A stretch of 63,522 nt of DNA, counting the filler, from Rhabdomonas costata (Eukaryota), in NCBI GenBank assembly GCA_019059605.1. It is 52 parts of 52 records of this genome, joined end to end, with 100 filler letters (N's around TTAATTAATTAA, not from the genome) between each part and the next. Parts side by side here need not be neighbours in the genome. Positions count along the whole stretch, not along the records: positions 3,678 to 4,802 come from JAHMHO010027385.1; 51 more parts are not named here. One strand, written 5' to 3'. Position numbers and translations under genes: made by a program. Numbering within the stretch: the stretch's first letter is position 1; every line of letters begins with the position of its first letter. The notes beneath the pieces are model-generated. The model worked only from the letters and a program-made list of their open reading frames with translations. It was not told where the DNA came from and made no database searches. This document shows positions 3,678 to 63,520 of this stretch, in pieces.

Positions 3678-3773
3678 CTGACCATCTGTTGGAGCGATTA
3701 TTTGACAATCTTTTAGTTTTTGTAAATATGTTATTGACTCCTCACTATCAGTTTTATCTGTAATAAAGCCCAT
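3678..3773 (-). CDS. 5' end of a divergently transcribed viral ORF (MGFITDKTDSEESITYLQKLKDCQIIAPTDGQ..., partial)
   Basis: 32 open codons run to the contig edge. The ATG is preceded by TATTATATAA, the same motif as the PLA2 gene. Too short for the ORF track. Confidence 0.6.
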
Positions 3774-3817
3774 TTATATAATACAGTCATAAAAAAATAT
3801 CTGATTATAATATATAC

Positions 3818-4606
3818 ATGATATCTTTATTTGTTTCAAATTCAGATAGTTCAAACGTCTCTAAAAACGGTTCACAGGTGCAGTTAAGTTTAAATCCAGC
3901 TATTTCATTAGACCCAGAAAAGAGATATTATTGCAGCTGTGTAGAATGTGATATTGTTTATTGTTTCGCAAATATTTTCACAGGAAAAAATGACAGATTT
4001 AATTACACAGTAGGAGCAACAACATATACACATTATTTTAGTCAAGGTCTTTACACTATTCAAGCTATGCAAAACAAAATAAATAGATTTACACAAGATG
4101 ATGTTCAGATCACTGGTCTTTTTATACTAGAACCAGACCTGAGTACATCTCATTGTTTTGTTCATTTCATGAGCACTACATGCAGTATTAATATTCAAGG
4201 AACAGATAATGTAATGCAGATATTAGGATATGTGGCAGATGCAACAACTACTAAAATAGGACCAGTTACACATGTAAATGATTATGCAGAAGGAAATAAT
4301 GCCCAATTAAACAATATTCAAAATGTATTAATTCTTGCATCATTTGTTAATGGATCATATTATAATAGACAAGCCAAAAATGTATTATGCAGTATTACAC
4401 CAGACGTAAAACCATATTCTGTAATAATGTACAGGCCTCAGAAGAGTGTTTATGTTCCTGTTATACAACATATTTTAGATATAATTACTTTTCAGTTGGT
4501 TGATCAGGACGGTCACGAATTGAATCTAGGTGTAAATCAAACCGGGGAATTATACGAACGATGGTCAGCCCGAATAATTATAGTTGATGCTGATCATGTA
4601 TTTTAA
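3818..4606 (+). CDS. Polinton/adintovirus-type minor capsid protein (penton, single jelly-roll), 262 aa
   Basis: Motif order typical of Maverick pentons: NPAISL, FANIFTGKNDRFNY, GLYTI..INR, ILGY, NIQNVLILASFVNGSYYN, VLCSITPDVKP..IMYRP..VYVPV, ITFQLVDQDG. Length fits. Confidence 0.8.
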   Translation: MISLFVSNSDSSNVSKNGSQVQLSLNPAISLDPEKRYYCSCVECDIVYCFANIFTGKNDRFNYTVGATTYTHYFSQGLYTIQAMQNKINRFTQDDVQITGLFILEPDLSTSHCFVHFMSTTCSINIQGTDNVMQILGYVADATTTKIGPVTHVNDYAEGNNAQLNNIQNVLILASFVNGSYYNRQAKNVLCSITPDVKPYSVIMYRPQKSVYVPVIQHILDIITFQLVDQDGHELNLGVNQTGELYERWSARIIIVDADHVF

Positions 4607-4626
4607 TTTCTCCGCTTATTATATAA

Positions 4627-4802
4627 ATGACAACATACAAAAACGGTTTATATTCTGGTGGTGGTTTTGATGATATATTAAAGAAGTTCACTTATGAAAA
4701 ATACCCAAATGAGCGTCACTTTCCATTTTATAATTATCTAGGTCCTCATACCAGATTAGACATAAGGCTAGATTCTAACGGAAAACCAAGAGCTGGGGAA
4801 GA
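4627..4802 (+). CDS. Parvovirus-type phospholipase A2 (PLA2X-like) protein, 5' part
   Basis: HFPFYNYLGPHTRLDIRL Ca-loop motif; near-identical to 42876-43262, which carries the HD catalytic helix. Confidence 0.85.
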
Positions 4803-9506: not shown

Positions 9507-9548
9507 CGCGTTCAGCTCTGTGCTGAGCGCATTGACCTGCTCCATCAC
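9507..9548 (-). CDS. IFT57: Probable next IFT57 exon (VMEQVNALSTELNA), in inverted orientation
   Basis: Pyrimidine tract-CAG acceptor and GTGAGT donor; 42 nt, phase 0. The peptide continues the IFT57 V..LS.ELN.VSE motif. Confidence 0.6.
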
Positions 9549-9800
9549 CTGTGAAAGGGAAAACTACGGTACAGAAACTTTCAGGCACCGAAGTCGACTC
9601 GAATCCACATCACGCTCCAACACGCTGGTCTCGATTAGCTCGATTAAGGCTGAAGGCAACTCTGGCCCCACCCCACAGCCCAGGCTACCCACAACAACNN
9701 NNNNNNNNNNNNNNNNNNNNNNNNNNNNNNNNNNNNNNNNNNTTAATTAATTAANNNNNNNNNNNNNNNNNNNNNNNNNNNNNNNNNNNNNNNNNNNNAA

Positions 9801-10310
9801 GAGGATATGTATGGAGAGGTAATGTTGCGTCCCATTGCTGGGAATGCTGTACGTCCAGATTTTGGGCCGGAAGAGGAAGTGAAGTTAGAACCTACGATAT
9901 TCATAGCAATGTGCTACAATTTTTTAGTGACTCCTTGTATCGATTTGTTTGCGTCGGCAGAGCACCATCAGCTGCCGCGGTATTTTACAGTTGACGAGAG
10001 GGATGGGGAGGCGATGGGCTGCAATGCGTTTGCCTACAGATGGAGCCCAGATGTGTGTCTGTACGCCAACCCTCCCTGGAGCCTCATTCCACATGTTTTG
10101 GCAAAGGTCTGTCGAGAAAGATCTCGGCTGCTTTTGGTGACACCAGAGTGGGTTGAAGCCCCATGGTATCCTTTGCTGAAAAAGCTGACGATCAGATTCC
10201 AGAGGTGGAGTGGGAGATTGTATTTAGTATCCGCAGGAAATCTTCGACCAAGGACGCTGTGTGCCACGGTGTTTTCCTACGTGGTTGGAAAAGAGATTGG
10301 TGGAGTTTAG
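9801..10310 (+). CDS. Retroelement-type (DIRS-like) DNA N6-adenine methyltransferase domain, C-terminal part of a 5'-truncated ORF
   Basis: IDLFAS..HHQLPRYF (SAM-binding), NAF..W..LYANPPWSLIP (catalytic NPPW), LLVTPEW..PWYPLL. Intronless and open from the contig start. Confidence 0.85.
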   Translation, partial: EDMYGEVMLRPIAGNAVRPDFGPEEEVKLEPTIFIAMCYNFLVTPCIDLFASAEHHQLPRYFTVDERDGEAMGCNAFAYRWSPDVCLYANPPWSLIPHVLAKVCRERSRLLLVTPEWVEAPWYPLLKKLTIRFQRWSGRLYLVSAGNLRPRTLCATVFSYVVGKEIGGV

Positions 10311-11240
10311 AGTGTAGTCATTGGGTTATACACATAGGAGGTTAGAGTGGGTTATCCACAAGTGTGAACTGGAGTAGAGCGTGTTATCAGATGGGCAGGA
10401 GACGAGCTTTTGATGCTTTGTCCTGTGTGTTTGTACCTTTGTTTTCCATTTCAGGCGCAAGGAACAACTCACCTAAGAAAGAAGAGGAGGGGGAGAAGTT
10501 CCTCCCCTCGAGCTACTTCCACAGAAAGACCCCGGTACTGCGCCCGTGGTGTGCCAAATCCACAGCTGAGAGAGAGCCAACCCTCCTGAGAAGCAGTGAG
10601 AGAAAGTGGGTGAGGGGTGAGGCTCCAAAGCGTTGGTGGGTTGAGAGGGGAGAATCCACAGCGTGCGTGGGTTGTGTGCAGAGCTCTGACAAAGCCACTG
10701 AGTGCTTTTGAGTTTCTCTTTGAGAGGCTTGAATGAGTGCTGAAGTACTTCCCAAAAAAGCACACGCAACCACGGACTCTCTTCTCGACACCAATCTCCC
10801 AACGCTACAAGAGGCGGCTAACGACACACGGACACACGGATACCCATAAGTTCTTTTCTGAAGAACCAGAACACGAACACAAACACAAAACTCAATTTTT
10901 GTTCCCCAAAACCCCGGATATGTNNNNNNNNNNNNNNNNNNNNNNNNNNNNNNNNNNNNNNNNNNNNTTAATTAATTAANNNNNNNNNNNNNNNNNNNNN
11001 NNNNNNNNNNNNNNNNNNNNNNNGGGGTTTGGGACGGACTGCGACGGTGGGACCCTGGAGCAGGTTGACATCCCTCTTTTAACGTGCTATGTGGACACTT
11101 GCTGTGCCGTCATCCACGTCAGGGTTGCTGTGTTTCATCGGGTGTGAGAGCGTTGCTCATACTTAGCTGTGTGATGGTGCTGGAATGGTGTCGGTGGCGG
11201 AGACATTCATGATGCGTGTATGGGTTTCAATTTTTTTCAG

Positions 11241-12129
11241 GTTCCTCCTGCGGATCTCCACAGCGCTTCGGTGGACGATATCTTCTCCATGGTAAAGGTG
11301 CGGTGTGGACGCCTTTCTTTCTTATGGTTTCCCCTGTCTGAACGTTTCTGTCCTTTTATTCGCTTTTTGATTGCGTTTTTTCTGATTTCTTCCATACGGT
11401 GCGTTGGGCTCACCGGATTCACCACAGGCCAAGTTCGGCGCGTGGCTGGGGGTGCAGCCTGGTTTGCTGAGCATCACGGTGAGCGGCGACCCGTACTACT
11501 GCGCGATGATGCCCATCGCGCAGTCCAATATCAGGTCCGGGCGACCTTTTCACCCACCAATCACTGCACTCTCGCCCGGTGTGAATCCCCCCTGGTGTTC
11601 CTTTCGTTATGGATTTGCCGGAAAAAACATCTCGTGGCGGTTTCTCACAACCTGCCCATGTGTGAGTCCTCCAGCGATCTTGTGGAACGGTTGCAACCGA
11701 GAGATAATATTGGATTTCTAGCGAAGCCGTGGACGTGTTTACGGGCCACCTCTGAATCCCTGACTCCAAGGTGGACTGCCGTTTTGTTGTTGGAGCAGAA
11801 CGTCCTCTTGGCGCCCATCTACGCAAAGACCAAAGTAGTGCTGGGCACGGTGTTTGGTATCACCGGGGGCTTTGTGGTGATCTCTTTGCTGTTCGCGGTT
11901 GCCCTGGCGAAGCCGCTGAGTGCTCTAGCGGAACAGATGGGGATGCTATCGTCGCTCGATTCCGGGGCGCTAGCACAGGTCGAGCACCTTCAGTGGCATT
12001 TCTTTTGGCATCGCGGTGGCCTTACGCAAATGGATGTCCCTCTGCCTGCCTTTTTCTCCAGGCGCACTTCCCGCACTCGATTCTGACGGAGGTGAGCACG
12101 CTGACCCAGACTTTCGTTGTGCTGACGAA
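11241..12129 (+). CDS. Membrane receptor fragment with TM helix and HAMP-like linker, probably a receptor-type nucleotide cyclase; exons 11241-11291, 11428-11534, 11771-11978, 12062-12129
   Basis: GT-AG exons join in frame. WTAVLLL..LLAPI, a hydrophobic span, then LAKPLSALAEQM..L and SILTEVSTLTQTF. Confidence 0.55.
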
Positions 12130-12915
12130 GTGCGCCTGGAGAAAAAANNNNNNNNNNNNNNNNNNNNNNNNNNNNNNNNNNNNNNNNNNNNTTAATTAAT
12201 TAANNNNNNNNNNNNNNNNNNNNNNNNNNNNNNNNNNNNNNNNNNNNGACTTGCCCGGCATTGCTGTCATTGCAATTCCTCGGCCCAGCGTTGTATAGCT
12301 TCCCGTCGACTGCATCAACTCCCCGGAGCGAATGCTGAGAGAGAGAGATCCAGTATATCTATTTGGCACTCCTACCGCAGTGAACCTTTTTTCCCTTTAT
12401 GTCTCCTTCTTGAGGATGATCACTATTTATGATGTCTTGGAGCTCTGCAGTCATGATTTGAAGCTTCGGGAGTGGCTAAGTGATGGCTCAGTTATGGTAT
12501 TCTTTTGTTTCCTCTCGCAGGAGGCTATGTACGATGTACGTGTACCCTGGGACATGATAATTTGTCTCGCATGGGGTTAGGGAGCGATGCAGCTGTCCCC
12601 GAAAAAAAGGTTCACTGCGGTAGGTATGCCATCTATCCTACCCCACGAATGCGCTTAGCGATGCCTTTGCAAAAGCAAGCTGGCATATCAAAAAAACGGG
12701 ATTGAAATCGGACTTGGGTTTGAATGAAGAAAATGATACGGAAAACTTCCCCTTGCAATTCTGTTTAGTTTCAATTTATTTGATTGCGTTCTGGGGTGCT
12801 TAGTTGGATCAGAGGGACGCTTTTTCAGTTTTATGCTGGGAAACCGATTCGCCCTGTGCGGTGTGACCCCATGAGAATACGCTCTCCATGGGACGCATCA
12901 CAGATACACACCCAC

Positions 12916-13074
12916 TTTGGCCTCCATCTTCTGGATCCACTTCAGGGCCTGGCCCTGGGGGTCGATCATCAGCGGCCACCGCCGAGACTTGTTCGACGTC
13001 GACGTAGTGACCATAATCGCGTTCTGCGTGCTGACGTTGTCCGTCGGCAGGGTCATGATGCTCCACTCCCGGAC
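12916..13074 (-). CDS. Axonemal dynein heavy chain exon (stalk end / AAA5)
   Basis: VREWSIMTLPTDNVSTQNAIMV...RRWPLMIDPQGQALKWIQKME; CAG acceptor and GT donor. Confidence 0.93.
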
Positions 13075-13189
13075 CTGGGTGAGTTGTTGCAAATTTTTAT
13101 TCAGCAAAGGACACTCCGCAAATAAAAACAAACGCATCAAAGCATACCGGTTAGAGACTTTTCCAAACTATGCTGAAAGAACAAGGAGA

Positions 13190-13370
13190 GTTTGTGCTAT
13201 TTCCGTTCGGCAGAAGGGGATGCAGACGTACATTAGTAGAGGATCAAAGGTCAGTTCTGGAGGATCAAAGGTCAAGCCTGATATGCTTGCTTTGATCCTC
13301 CAGAACTGACCTTTGATCCTCTACTAATGTACGTCTGCATCCCCTTCTGCCGAACGGAAATAACACAAAC
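13190..13370. repeat. Contig-terminal inverted repeat (81-bp arms 13190-13270 / 13290-13370), probable fold-back chimera
   Basis: Reverse-complement arms with one mismatch, a 19-nt loop, ending at the contig edge. Confidence 0.85.
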
Positions 13371-13568
13371 CNNNNNNNNNNNNNNNNNNNNNNNNNNNNN
13401 NNNNNNNNNNNNNNNTTAATTAATTAANNNNNNNNNNNNNNNNNNNNNNNNNNNNNNNNNNNNNNNNNNNNTCTCATTTCCCCCCGAACGTTTCGTGGTT
13501 TCGTGGGATTTTCTCTGCTTCCGTGCTTCCATGAGGGTTACCTTCTGATTTTTCGCGCAGAATTGCAG

Positions 13569-42700: not shown

Positions 42701-42875
42701 TCATGCGCAGCGGACCGAACCACACCCCNNNNNNNNNNNNNNNNNNNNNNNNNNNNNNNNNNNNNNNNNNNNTTAATTAATTAANNNNNNNNNNNNNNNN
42801 NNNNNNNNNNNNNNNNNNNNNNNNNNNNTTTATTCTTATTTCCTAGACCTGAAAACGTATTTGAATCTAAGACTC

Positions 42876-43262
42876 CTACTTTTTCTGTTTTGCTTTTATG
42901 ATACCTGCCGAAATAGTACCTAATGGTTGAACATTACTATTTTTAGCATCTTGAATAAATGTATTATCTGCTTGATGAATTGCATTTAATGCTTTTTGTT
43001 TATTATTATCTTTTTTATATTGATCTTGAATTGCTTTATAAGATTTATCATGAGAAAGAGCTATATTATCTAATTGATTTATTGCTTCTTCACCAGCTCT
43101 TGGTTTTCCGTTAGAATCTAACCTTATATCTAATCTGGTATGAGGCCCTAGATAATTATAAAATGGAAAGTGACGTTCATTTGGATATTTTTCATAAGTG
43201 AACTTCTTTAATACATCATCAAATCCACCACCAGAATATAAACCATTTTTGTATGTCGTCAT
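42876..43262 (-). CDS. Parvovirus-type PLA2 (PLA2X-like) protein, 128 aa; probably frameshifted near the C-terminus
   Basis: YNYLGPHT, INQLDNIALSHDKSY (HD dyad), HQADNTF (second Asp). An alternative frame from 42885 continues EKVGVLDSNTFSGLGNKNK to the contig edge. Confidence 0.88.
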   Translation of the reverse strand: MTTYKNGLYSGGGFDDVLKKFTYEKYPNERHFPFYNYLGPHTRLDIRLDSNGKPRAGEEAINQLDNIALSHDKSYKAIQDQYKKDNNKQKALNAIHQADNTFIQDAKNSNVQPLGTISAGIIKAKQKK

Positions 43263-43915: not shown

Positions 43916-44601
43916 ATGATAGATTTAATTACACAGTAGGAGCAACAAACAANNNNNNNNNNNNNNNNNNNNNNNNNNNNNNNNNNNNNNNNNNNNTTAA
44001 TTAATTAANNNNNNNNNNNNNNNNNNNNNNNNNNNNNNNNNNNNNNNNNNNNATTTCTTGCTGGTGACGTCGTCGGGCTTTGAAATGGCATCTTTTTTTT
44101 GGGGGGGGGGGGTGCGTTGAACGTTAAGCACCGCTCGACATTCACGCTTAGTGATGCCCCTTAAATTTCTGCTTTTCTCTCGGAATATTGTAAATTCTAA
44201 ATTTCAATAATTCGATCGTGCCTTTCCGTTCGAAAATGAGTTTGAACGGAAATTTTTCCATGTATACTTCGGGCTGCACTTTTTTACACTTTCCCTCATG
44301 GCACCCTTGCACTAGCAGTTGAACTGAAATCGGGTGTTTTTATGGTCAGTTGTCTTTTGCTTTGGATTTTTTCTGAACATTCTTATTATTAATCATTTTG
44401 TGGGGTGGGGTGGGGCTCTGATCGAAATTAGTTTATTTACAGCACCTAACCCCAAATAAATGAGTGGCCGACACTGTTTACATGACCCATGTTTACATAA
44501 CCTTACATAACCTTAACATCCTTAGAAGGGATTGGTGTGTTGTTCAGCAAGCCGGTGTGCCAGCGATAATCTTTGCTTTCGTTTTGCCTCTCCTCCTGCA
44601 G

Positions 44602-62398: not shown

Positions 62399-63520
62399 AC
62401 TTCGGGCTGACTCCAGCATTTGATCATAGGCCTTCCGTGCCTGCGCGTCTAATAAGGTCTCGTATGCCCGTCGCAGGGCCTGAAACAAGGCGGTTGCCTT
62501 CGTGGTCTCCAGCGGGAATTTATCTGGGTGGCACTCCAATGCCAATCTCCTGTACGCTGCTCTAATTGCCGTGGATGTTGCTTTGCAATGCACCCCCAGC
62601 CCCTCGTAGTGCGACTTGCTCAACGCTTCCTCCAGCTCGTGCAATTTTTCTCTTTCTCTCTGGACTTGCGCTTCCCTTCGGAGCAATGCAACTCGCTCTT
62701 GGGTTTGCTGTGCACGCTGCTTCAGCTTTGCGACCTCGTCCCGCCAAAGATCCATGAGATTCAATCTCTCCTCTCCTTCAAGCTGTTCTAATTCTCGACC
62801 ATTCCTGCCTGCTGGGAGGGACTGAACTCGCTCCTTTACTCCGAGATGGGGGCGTTGAGTTGAGGCTTCTTCACCATTCCCTGGTAACATCCGTGCTGCT
62901 CTCCGAGCTAACGCTGTGCTCTCTTCGACAACGTGGCGTTCCATCAGCTCATCGACTTCCAGCTCCATCCTTTTATCTTGCTCCATGCCGCACAGGCTGC
63001 GCCAGGTCACATCGTGTAGTGGCCCGCACTTTCTTTTCACCATCGCTTGGAGCTTCTGCCTCTCTCTGGATGCTTCAAATGTCATGGTGAATCTGGCTGT
63101 TGCCTCTTGTACTGCTAAGTTCTCATCCCACCGCTCAGTGGGCTCGCGCTCCCCCCGCCGACTGCGTCCCGCTCTCACTTGTTCGCGTCGTCTTTCTCGC
63201 TGCTTCACGCTGGGGCAACTCTCTGCTGACATGCGACTTCTTTGCTGCGTCCAGACTTTCGGAGCTTTACGCTGTTGAGTGGGTCGCCCCATAGCCTGCG
63301 GAGTCTTTCGCGGTTCCCTTTGCTCATACACGAGCAGCGTTGCCTCCTCTGCCCTGTACGACTCCGATGGTCGCACACTTTCATCATCAAAAAGGCACCA
63401 CATTCCGTCTCCTCTTCCCCGAATGTCCACTGTGTAGTGTCCTCCGCCTTCCCACCCCCGGTGATTGACTACGGCCACCAATTCATACATGGCCGTATTA
63501 TGGGGTTCCAGCGACACAGA
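62399..63520 (-). CDS. Intronless multi-domain ORF, open at both ends: USP/peptidase C19 His-box, charged coiled coil, DnaJ J-domain
   Basis: YELVAVVNHRG..GGHY..WCLFDDESV..LLVYE (USP catalytic His and Asp); HYEGLGV..IRAAYRRLALECHPDK..FQALRRAYETLLD..RKAYD (J-domain with HPD). Confidence 0.9.

Follow-up and report, generated by a model that had tools for sequence, protein, structure and literature searches.

Two variants of a penton and phospholipase A2 gene module, probably from a small Polinton/Maverick-kind virus, in a genome assembly of Rhabdomonas costata

According to a 2026 preprint, Mavericks, Polintons and adintoviruses make up a single class, Polintoviricetes, known mostly from animal genomes. 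To the viruses related to this class, the preprint adds the protist-infecting Gosseviruses, with cysteine protease and phospholipase genes, as well as VC35, a cluster from lake viromes that carries protease and phospholipase genes and has no known host; phospholipase plus cysteine protease genes are described there as marks of the Polintoviricetes-related groups (10.64898/2026.06.19.733378). In adintoviruses, the phospholipase A2 (PLA2) is found as PLA2X, described as a PLA2 followed by a pX-like C-terminus (Starrett et al. 2021, PMC8502044). Viruses of the Polinton/Maverick type form a link between transposons, virophages and adenoviruses, possibly also giant viruses; knowledge of the members that infect protists comes almost solely from metagenomes, and hosts are the main gap. 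Here, we analysed a stretch of 63,522 nucleotides (the window) from the Rhabdomonas costata assembly GCA_019059605.1, a slice of a highly fragmented assembly that consists of 52 contigs of 1109-1128 bp each, with N spacers between them. Two of the contigs, contig A (3678-4802) and contig B (42829-43952), carry a predicted penton gene followed by a predicted PLA2 gene. We put the probability at roughly 0.85 that they are pieces of a module of virion genes belonging to a small double-stranded DNA (dsDNA) virus of the Polinton/Maverick kind (Polintoviricetes-related), present in two variants. This reading draws on the fold of the penton, the PLA2 domain, the homologues and their synteny, the core genes of relatives, and purifying selection between the variants.

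With GC fractions of 0.314 (A) and 0.309 (B), the two contigs are the sole AT-rich ones among the 52, the remaining 50 ranging from 0.444 to 0.592. Contig A consists, in this order, of the start of a minus-strand open reading frame (ORF; 32 codons), a 44-nt spacer, an ORF of 262 codons, a 20-nt spacer and a second ORF, of which the contig holds the initial 58 codons, while contig B has the penton and PLA2 genes in the same arrangement on the opposite strand. Their gapless alignment spans 828 bp and shows 55 differences (93.4% identity), and the window hence contains at least two variants of the module, ~7% apart. A first-pass annotation of the window had noted that two AT-rich contigs share the same penton-then-PLA2 pair, which the ORFs and this alignment confirmed; it had placed the end of contig B at 43917, and the true end lies at 43952. 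Most differences between the copies are synonymous, with 28 synonymous versus 14 non-synonymous changes in the penton gene (dN/dS 0.12; 9 of 209 compared residues differ) and nine versus one in the PLA2 gene (dN/dS 0.02). This substitution pattern is that of purifying selection, implying that the copies diverged with both genes under selection, and it agrees better with two viral strains, or with diverged viruses that integrated in two separate events, than with copies decaying in place.

The penton gene is complete in contig A (3818-4606, plus strand, 262 aa). In contig B (43283-43918, minus strand), the 5' part is missing and the last ~211 codons plus the stop are present; a tblastn search with the penton of L010, the closest long relative described below, covers 43918-43289. 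The 262-aa sequence had no match in Pfam, nothing better than E 0.09 in PHROGs, and no match at E up to 10 among PDB sequences (phmmer). Its AlphaFold2 model, computed from an alignment of 24 homologues, is mostly beta (predicted local distance difference test, pLDDT, 82.2; predicted template modelling score, pTM, 0.68), and ranks 1-6 of a Foldseek search of the PDB were all taken by mavirus penton chains (6g42, E 3.9e-10 to 3.6e-9), followed by adenovirus penton bases and the Sputnik penton. Among the best matches in BFVD were a protein of Tetraselmis viridis virus S1 (at the top) and pentons of polinton-like viruses (PLVs), adomavirus LO5, a "putative penton" of a MELD virus, the mavirus minor capsid protein and adintovirus pentons. 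Upon re-alignment with VIA, the first 30 rows were all penton or vertex proteins with Z values of 8.9-12.7 (12.7 for Paramecium bursaria chlorella virus 1, PBCV-1; 10.8 for mavirus; ~10 for adenoviruses; 9.7 for Sputnik), the first unrelated row scoring 6.2. A jelly-roll base and an insertion domain are common to the modelled protein and the pentons of mavirus (6g42; Z 10.8, 226 residues aligned), Sputnik (3j26_N; 9.7, 242) and adenovirus (1x9t; 9.9, 242), whereas sequence identity to them is only 9-14%, and with its 262 aa the protein falls short of the adenovirus penton base in length (about 450-570 aa). Its modelled fold identifies the ORF product as a penton of the jelly-roll kind known from adenoviruses, virophages and Polintons. 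The first-pass annotation had proposed this identity and had named the lack of a jelly-roll fold as the finding that would speak against it; the AlphaFold2 model and the Foldseek and VIA comparisons recovered the penton fold.

The second ORF had been annotated as a PLA2, and this assignment stood. Copy B of the gene (42876-43262, minus strand, 128 codons plus stop) encodes a whole PLA2 domain that matched Pfam PF08398 at 35.3 bits (E 1.4e-8), above the curated cut-off of 23.9 bits. Copy A (4627-4802, plus strand) comprises the first 58 codons, including the YLGP loop region, up to the contig end, and 57 of these 58 residues are identical in copy B. Three features can be aligned with a parvovirus VP1 chain of solved structure (9me0_A), namely the YLGP loop, the catalytic motif HD..Y and an Asp further on; H71, D72, Y75 and D99 are kept in all nine alignment rows that reach them, and within the calcium loop (Y-x-G-x-G) Y, L, G and P are invariant, while the final position is Gly in seven of ten rows and Trp in one (L006). 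From these sequence features, the second ORF is identified as a PLA2 of the parvovirus type, having in common with the PLA2 of the parvovirus VP1 unique region the domain match, the YLGP loop, HD..Y and the later Asp. In parvoviruses, however, the PLA2 forms the N-terminus of a capsid protein, whereas here it is a separate small protein encoded beside the penton of a dsDNA virus. When the PLA2 alignment was searched against IMG/VR, the only matches were two parvovirus-sized contigs of 4.6-4.7 kb (L020 and L021; 28-45% identity over the PLA2 core), which show how close the PLA2 domain of the window is to the parvoviral one.

Eight homologues of the PLA2 were found, seven of which carry PF08398 (E 2.1e-8 for the L010 orthologue). 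Full-length relatives have 212-241 aa; beyond the domain they share a conserved TFSGLG motif and a basic stretch, as well as a hydrophobic helix preceded by Gly-Gly. This two-part build resembles adintovirus PLA2X, although the Pfam model Adeno_PX was not reported for the L010 protein at E up to 0.01. Gly-Gly sites of such kind are cleavage sites of adenain-type proteases, and the C-terminal helix may be released during maturation. Both copies in the window are without the extension, copy A being cut by the contig end and copy B by a frame break. In the latter, the frame ends after 128 codons at a stop codon (42878-42876) beside an A-run; the stretch with the conserved TFSGLG motif lies in another frame (out-of-frame continuation at 42829-42890, minus strand, homologous to the region beyond the PLA2 domain in relatives), with the break just upstream of the stop. 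It could be either a real mutation or a homopolymer error. In three metagenome relatives (L016, 2011-2794; L019, 444-1216; L018, 915-1258), the penton or PLA2 was likewise recovered by tblastn as two segments in different frames, so that such breaks also occur outside copy B and may in many cases reflect sequencing errors.

Homologues of the penton numbered 39 among 155 candidates from a large protein database (51-72% identity, E 1e-40 to 1e-122). Nearly all lie on contigs 1-2 kb long; ENA, JGI or Logan assemblies are the source of all but one, an NCBI fragment. A scan of JGI metagenome contigs gave 19 loci, and in 16 of them the penton is followed by PLA2 (13 by tblastn, L010, and L002 and L015 by eye); two others stop within 13 nt of the penton. 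L001 is the sole locus with room but no PLA2 start; what appears to be another small ORF starts in this stretch (1289-1418). Divergently upstream of the penton lies a fiber-like gene in 11 of the 19 loci (10 of 18 if L010 is set aside); in 6 of the 19, PLA2 is followed by an ATPase-like gene that runs on the opposite strand. The clade, an environmental one, has a conserved arrangement, with the fiber gene on one side of the penton-PLA2X pair and the ATPase gene on the other. These observations bear on the notion that the ORFs arose by chance or through assembly artefacts, or that the PLA2 stems from a parvovirus-like single-stranded DNA virus. PF08398 is best known from parvoviruses, and the IMG/VR matches of the PLA2 were confined to the two short contigs mentioned above; yet a 262-codon ORF in DNA of 31% GC, 39 homologues, a confident fold and conserved neighbours argue to the contrary, as does a PLA2 that adjoins penton and ATPase in contigs of up to 19 kb. 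We regard the probability of such an origin as negligible. Chance ORFs and a parvovirus origin of the PLA2 were ruled out by the homologues, the fold, the Foldseek matches and the neighbourhood.

What else such viruses encode can be read from L010, of which we analysed 14.7 kb of a 19,042-bp contig (GC ~0.31; one contig end covered). Its penton is 57% identical to that of the window. Gene 1 encodes a fiber-like protein of 1245 aa with Ser/Thr/Asn-rich repeats, genes 2 and 3 are the penton and a 241-aa PLA2 protein, and gene 4 specifies a 223-aa P-loop protein weakly similar to an A32 ATPase (E 4e-5). There follow a lysine-rich protein of 328 aa (gene 5), a 550-aa protein predicted to be a double-jelly-roll major capsid protein (MCP; gene 6), a 149-aa protease candidate in which a His...Asp...Gln...Cys pattern was recognised by eye (gene 7), a papain-family (C1) peptidase (gene 8, 10379-11125; PF00112, E 7e-8) and an HNH endonuclease (gene 9, 12273-12869; PF13392). 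To our knowledge, a papain-type protease beside an adenain-like one is unusual for such viruses. The last gene is the start of a long ORF that corresponds to the N-terminus of P0048, a 1371-aa DNA polymerase of family B that is of the protein-primed type (pPolB).

For the 550-aa protein, the model (pLDDT 79.3) has a double-jelly-roll fold, with 232 Foldseek matches at E up to 0.001 (best 2.8e-14), among them the major capsid proteins of iridovirus, PBCV-1, Sputnik, mavirus, adenovirus, African swine fever virus and faustovirus. In sequence comparisons, the MCP profile gave a single match among PDB sequences (E 0.18), searches of the same sequences with the L010 fiber, the MCP and the PolB N-terminus returned nothing meaningful, and those with the full PolB no match at all. 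An atlas search with the PolB N-terminus was uninformative (best score 0.81). P0048 and a polymerase from a sea slug (P0058; PF03175) share 40% identity over 1110 aa; the other relatives of P0048 that carry names are insect, cnidarian and mollusc polymerases of the Maverick type. In an alignment of 14 polymerases, invariant columns that include Asp agree with exonuclease and polymerase motifs. The environmental pPolBs also feature an endonuclease VII-like zinc-finger insert (at ~619-659 in P0048; PF02945, E 1e-3 in P0048 and 3.4e-7 in the L026 enzyme described next), and some of them an N-terminal Rho_N-like domain.

PolB used as a single sequence had no matches in IMG/VR; the 14-polymerase alignment retrieved 24 contigs whose polymerases are 34-45% identical in the best segment. 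When these 24 contigs were queried with L010 proteins, eight had the penton, 11 the PLA2, nine the small protease, and seven both penton and PLA2. One of the IMG/VR contigs, L026, measures 16.9 kb and is bounded by terminal inverted repeats of ~770 nt. It encodes an integrase that combines an rve domain (PF00665, E 1.5e-7, narrowly missing the cut-off) with a chromodomain. Its further products are a penton, an A32 ATPase, a fusion of PLA2 with DUF5679, an MCP of family PF21738 and a pPolB (9524-13408), along with a small protease of 139 aa (weak Peptidase_C5 match, E 0.043). A weakly pX-like protein and one with a discoidin (F5/8 type C) domain are encoded as well. L026 is seemingly a complete Polinton-type genome. 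Its penton shares 25% identity with that of the window, detectable by plain sequence comparison (E 2e-15), and its 139-aa ORF shares 30% with the L010 protease (E 2e-7). Gene set and penton likeness together tie the penton-PLA2 pair of the window to bona fide Polinton/Maverick-type viruses. The first-pass annotation had held that a want of further Polinton core genes would count against its proposal; a double-jelly-roll MCP, an ATPase, a putative protease and a pPolB are all found in the relatives.

These comparisons also bear on a derivation of the module from a virophage or from a PLV outside the Maverick/Polinton lineage (Aquintoviricetes-type). Mavirus provided the best match of the penton among solved structures and Tetraselmis viridis virus S1 the best in BFVD; the L010 MCP, which is not of the Pfam Polinton type, has in Sputnik and PBCV-1 matches roughly as good as any other; and a WTCT motif upstream of 13 of 16 L010 genes brings to mind the TCTA core of late promoters known from mimivirids and mavirus. 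By contrast, the pPolB of L010 resembles that of animal Mavericks over 1110 aa, the same polymerase occurs on 24 IMG/VR contigs, a third of them with the penton and 11 with the PLA2, and L026 is a textbook Polinton. Besides, phospholipase and cysteine protease are reported as marks of Polintoviricetes-related viruses (10.64898/2026.06.19.733378). We therefore consider a virophage or PLV origin improbable.

Several observations nevertheless weigh against assigning contigs A and B to a Polinton/Maverick-kind virus. The unique viral sequence in the window, where both contigs are internal fragments, amounts to only ~1.4 kb, without an MCP or ATPase gene, and copy B is damaged, by the frame break in its PLA2 and by a foldback at its end. 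The remaining core genes come only from relatives whose pentons are 57% (L010) or 25% (L026) identical, MCP and ATPase beside the penton having been seen in L010 only; modules recombine in viruses of the Polinton type, so the replication genes of the virus in the window may differ from those of its relatives. The L010 MCP has no Pfam match and no similarity to the PF21738 MCP of L026 (BLASTP E 0.64), and no capsid family was matched by any of the 33 members of its alignment, for which reason the lineage is not a classical adintovirus. No integrase was found among the ten largest ORFs in the 14.7 kb of L010. In both PLA2 copies of the window, the last Gly of the calcium loop is replaced by His, so that activity is not assured. 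L001 extends 130 nt beyond the penton without a recognisable PLA2 start. Finally, the penton alignment produced 89 pattern matches in IMG/VR and 15 in a prokaryote genome collection, with no relatives in either.

How does the module compare with the described groups? With adintoviruses and Maverick-Polintons it has in common the penton fold and a PLA2 with, in the relatives, a C-terminal extension, to which the relatives add pPolB, an A32-type ATPase and a candidate adenain-like protease. Unlike adintoviruses, the relatives stem from environmental assemblies, the part of L010 covered showed neither a Polinton-type MCP by Pfam nor an integrase, and it additionally encodes a papain-type protease as well as an HNH endonuclease. 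According to the preprint cited above and to PMC10120064, Gosseviruses (GKS1) and VC35 resemble the relatives in genome size (~15-20 kb), a cysteine protease, a phospholipase (in about half of the members), links to Maverick-Polintons and an aquatic origin; the Gossevirus MCP is reported to be Sputnik-like, and Sputnik is among the top matches of the L010 MCP. Compared by gene content alone, the module's relatives fit the Gossevirus/VC35 groups better than animal adintoviruses. The reported Gossevirus hosts are oomycetes and chrysophytes. The view, adopted in the first-pass annotation, that such viruses are best described in animals needs amending now that protist-infecting Gosseviruses and VC35 have been described (10.64898/2026.06.19.733378).

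If the contigs indeed derive from a Polinton/Maverick-kind virus, the 262-aa protein would, by analogy with known pentons, form pentamers that serve as vertex capsomers in an icosahedral capsid, whose body would be built of the double-jelly-roll MCP, and the divergent upstream gene would supply a long, fiber-like attachment protein. We infer from the parvovirus VP1 unique region and adintovirus PLA2X that the PLA2, with its C-terminal hydrophobic helix, may be carried in the virion and breach the endosomal or vacuolar membrane at entry. In the relatives, replication would be protein-primed by PolB, packaging would be driven by the A32-type ATPase, and maturation would involve the adenain-like protease.

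Where this DNA sits is a separate matter. Contigs A and B might be endogenous, multi-copy elements of the Polinton type, integrated into the protist's own nuclear genome. Two diverged copies were assembled separately, on contigs as short as the rest, which fits host-like coverage and repeat-induced fragmentation; the PLA2 of copy B is frame-broken, and the related L026 encodes an rve integrase. Moreover, integrated viruses of the Polinton-like kind are reported to be common in protist genomes (Bellas et al. 2023, PMC10120064). On the other hand, neither contig includes a host-like junction, and the dN/dS values of 0.12 and 0.02 indicate divergence as functioning genes rather than neutral decay after duplication. 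The 14.7 kb of L010 analysed yielded no integrase, and the other 50 contigs of the window gave no match to L010 proteins. The GC content (0.31 versus 0.44-0.59) likewise sets the contigs apart, although endogenous viruses of the Polinton kind often differ strongly from their host in GC. On balance, we see integration as a real possibility that falls somewhat short of being probable.

The contigs could instead stem from a virus population, free or episomal, or from the genome of another organism, be it prey, a contaminant or a co-cultured eukaryote. With a 20-point GC gap to all other contigs, 39 penton relatives that come from metagenome or run assemblies bar one NCBI fragment, a gene order matching that of free viral contigs of up to 19 kb, purifying selection between the variants, and a foldback end suggestive of amplification artefacts in the library, we lean modestly towards this explanation, even though the assembly of an abundant free virus should yield long contigs rather than 1.1-kb pieces. 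Either way, "many copies", an "endogenous" state and a "euglenozoan host", all put forward in the first-pass annotation, are conjectures. That the sequenced flagellate is the natural host, by integration or persistence, of an unnamed freshwater clade of Polintoviricetes-related viruses with the fiber, penton-PLA2X and ATPase arrangement and a non-classical capsid protein strikes us as unlikely.

The virion genes of a Polinton/Maverick-kind virus in a protist assembly, in two selected variants, are all the same a lead to a culturable host-virus pair; a lead, that is, and not a host assignment. The penton-PLA2 pair, at ~1.4 kb, offers a simple screening marker for a clade that the penton scan of IMG/VR did not find. 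Should the flagellate prove to be the host, it could also supply one for an orphan lake-virome group such as VC35, and if the organism is euglenozoan, virion-forming viruses of the Polinton type would be extended to a supergroup without reports in the literature examined. Within that literature, the main text of Bellas et al. 2023 (PMC10120064) contains no occurrence of "Euglenozoa", "kinetoplast" or "euglen-" and mentions Discoba once, for virophage genes, and a full-text literature search returned, among the matches listed and judged by title and abstract, no polinton-like virus of Euglenozoa.

Turning to the remaining features of the window, the foldback of contig B (43867-43948) occupies the outermost 82 nt of the contig and consists of two 39-nt arms, 97% complementary, around a 4-nt loop. 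One arm is penton coding sequence, the other its reverse complement, and the structure stands in place of the first ~50 penton codons. It is most likely an amplification or assembly chimera, and it hints at chimeric reads in the assembly, e.g. from whole-genome amplification. An Rfam scan of the entire window gave no matches. Among the longest ORFs of ten other contigs, Pfam matches were limited to one ORF and two weak hits elsewhere. The former (62399-63520, minus strand), the longest ORF of the GC-rich contigs at 374 codons and open at both ends, encodes the end of a ubiquitin C-terminal hydrolase (UCH) domain and a DnaJ domain, and by this ORF the other contigs are eukaryote-like. Most other GC-rich contigs have short ORFs only, in keeping with low coding density or interrupted genes.

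At the left end of contig A, the minus-strand stub (3678-3773) comprises the first 32 codons of a gene that is divergent from the penton and cut by the contig end; it aligns by BLASTP with the N-terminus of the 1245-aa Ser/Thr/Asn-rich ORF of L010 (17/42 identical, E 3e-7) and is accordingly predicted to be the start of the fiber-like gene. The AT-rich 44-nt region between this gene and the penton (3774-3817) has TATA-like runs immediately before both start codons, as do its counterparts in relatives, and is a candidate bidirectional promoter by its sequence. In L010, the WTCT motif (often TTTCTA) lies at -32 to -10 of 13 of 16 genes, compared with a fraction of 0.21 of background windows, a statistic that is only indicative because the motif was picked after inspection. 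The same upstream pattern recurs in the window at 3774-3817 and at 4607-4626, with a TATATA-like run just ahead of the ATG, and may reflect a common promoter.

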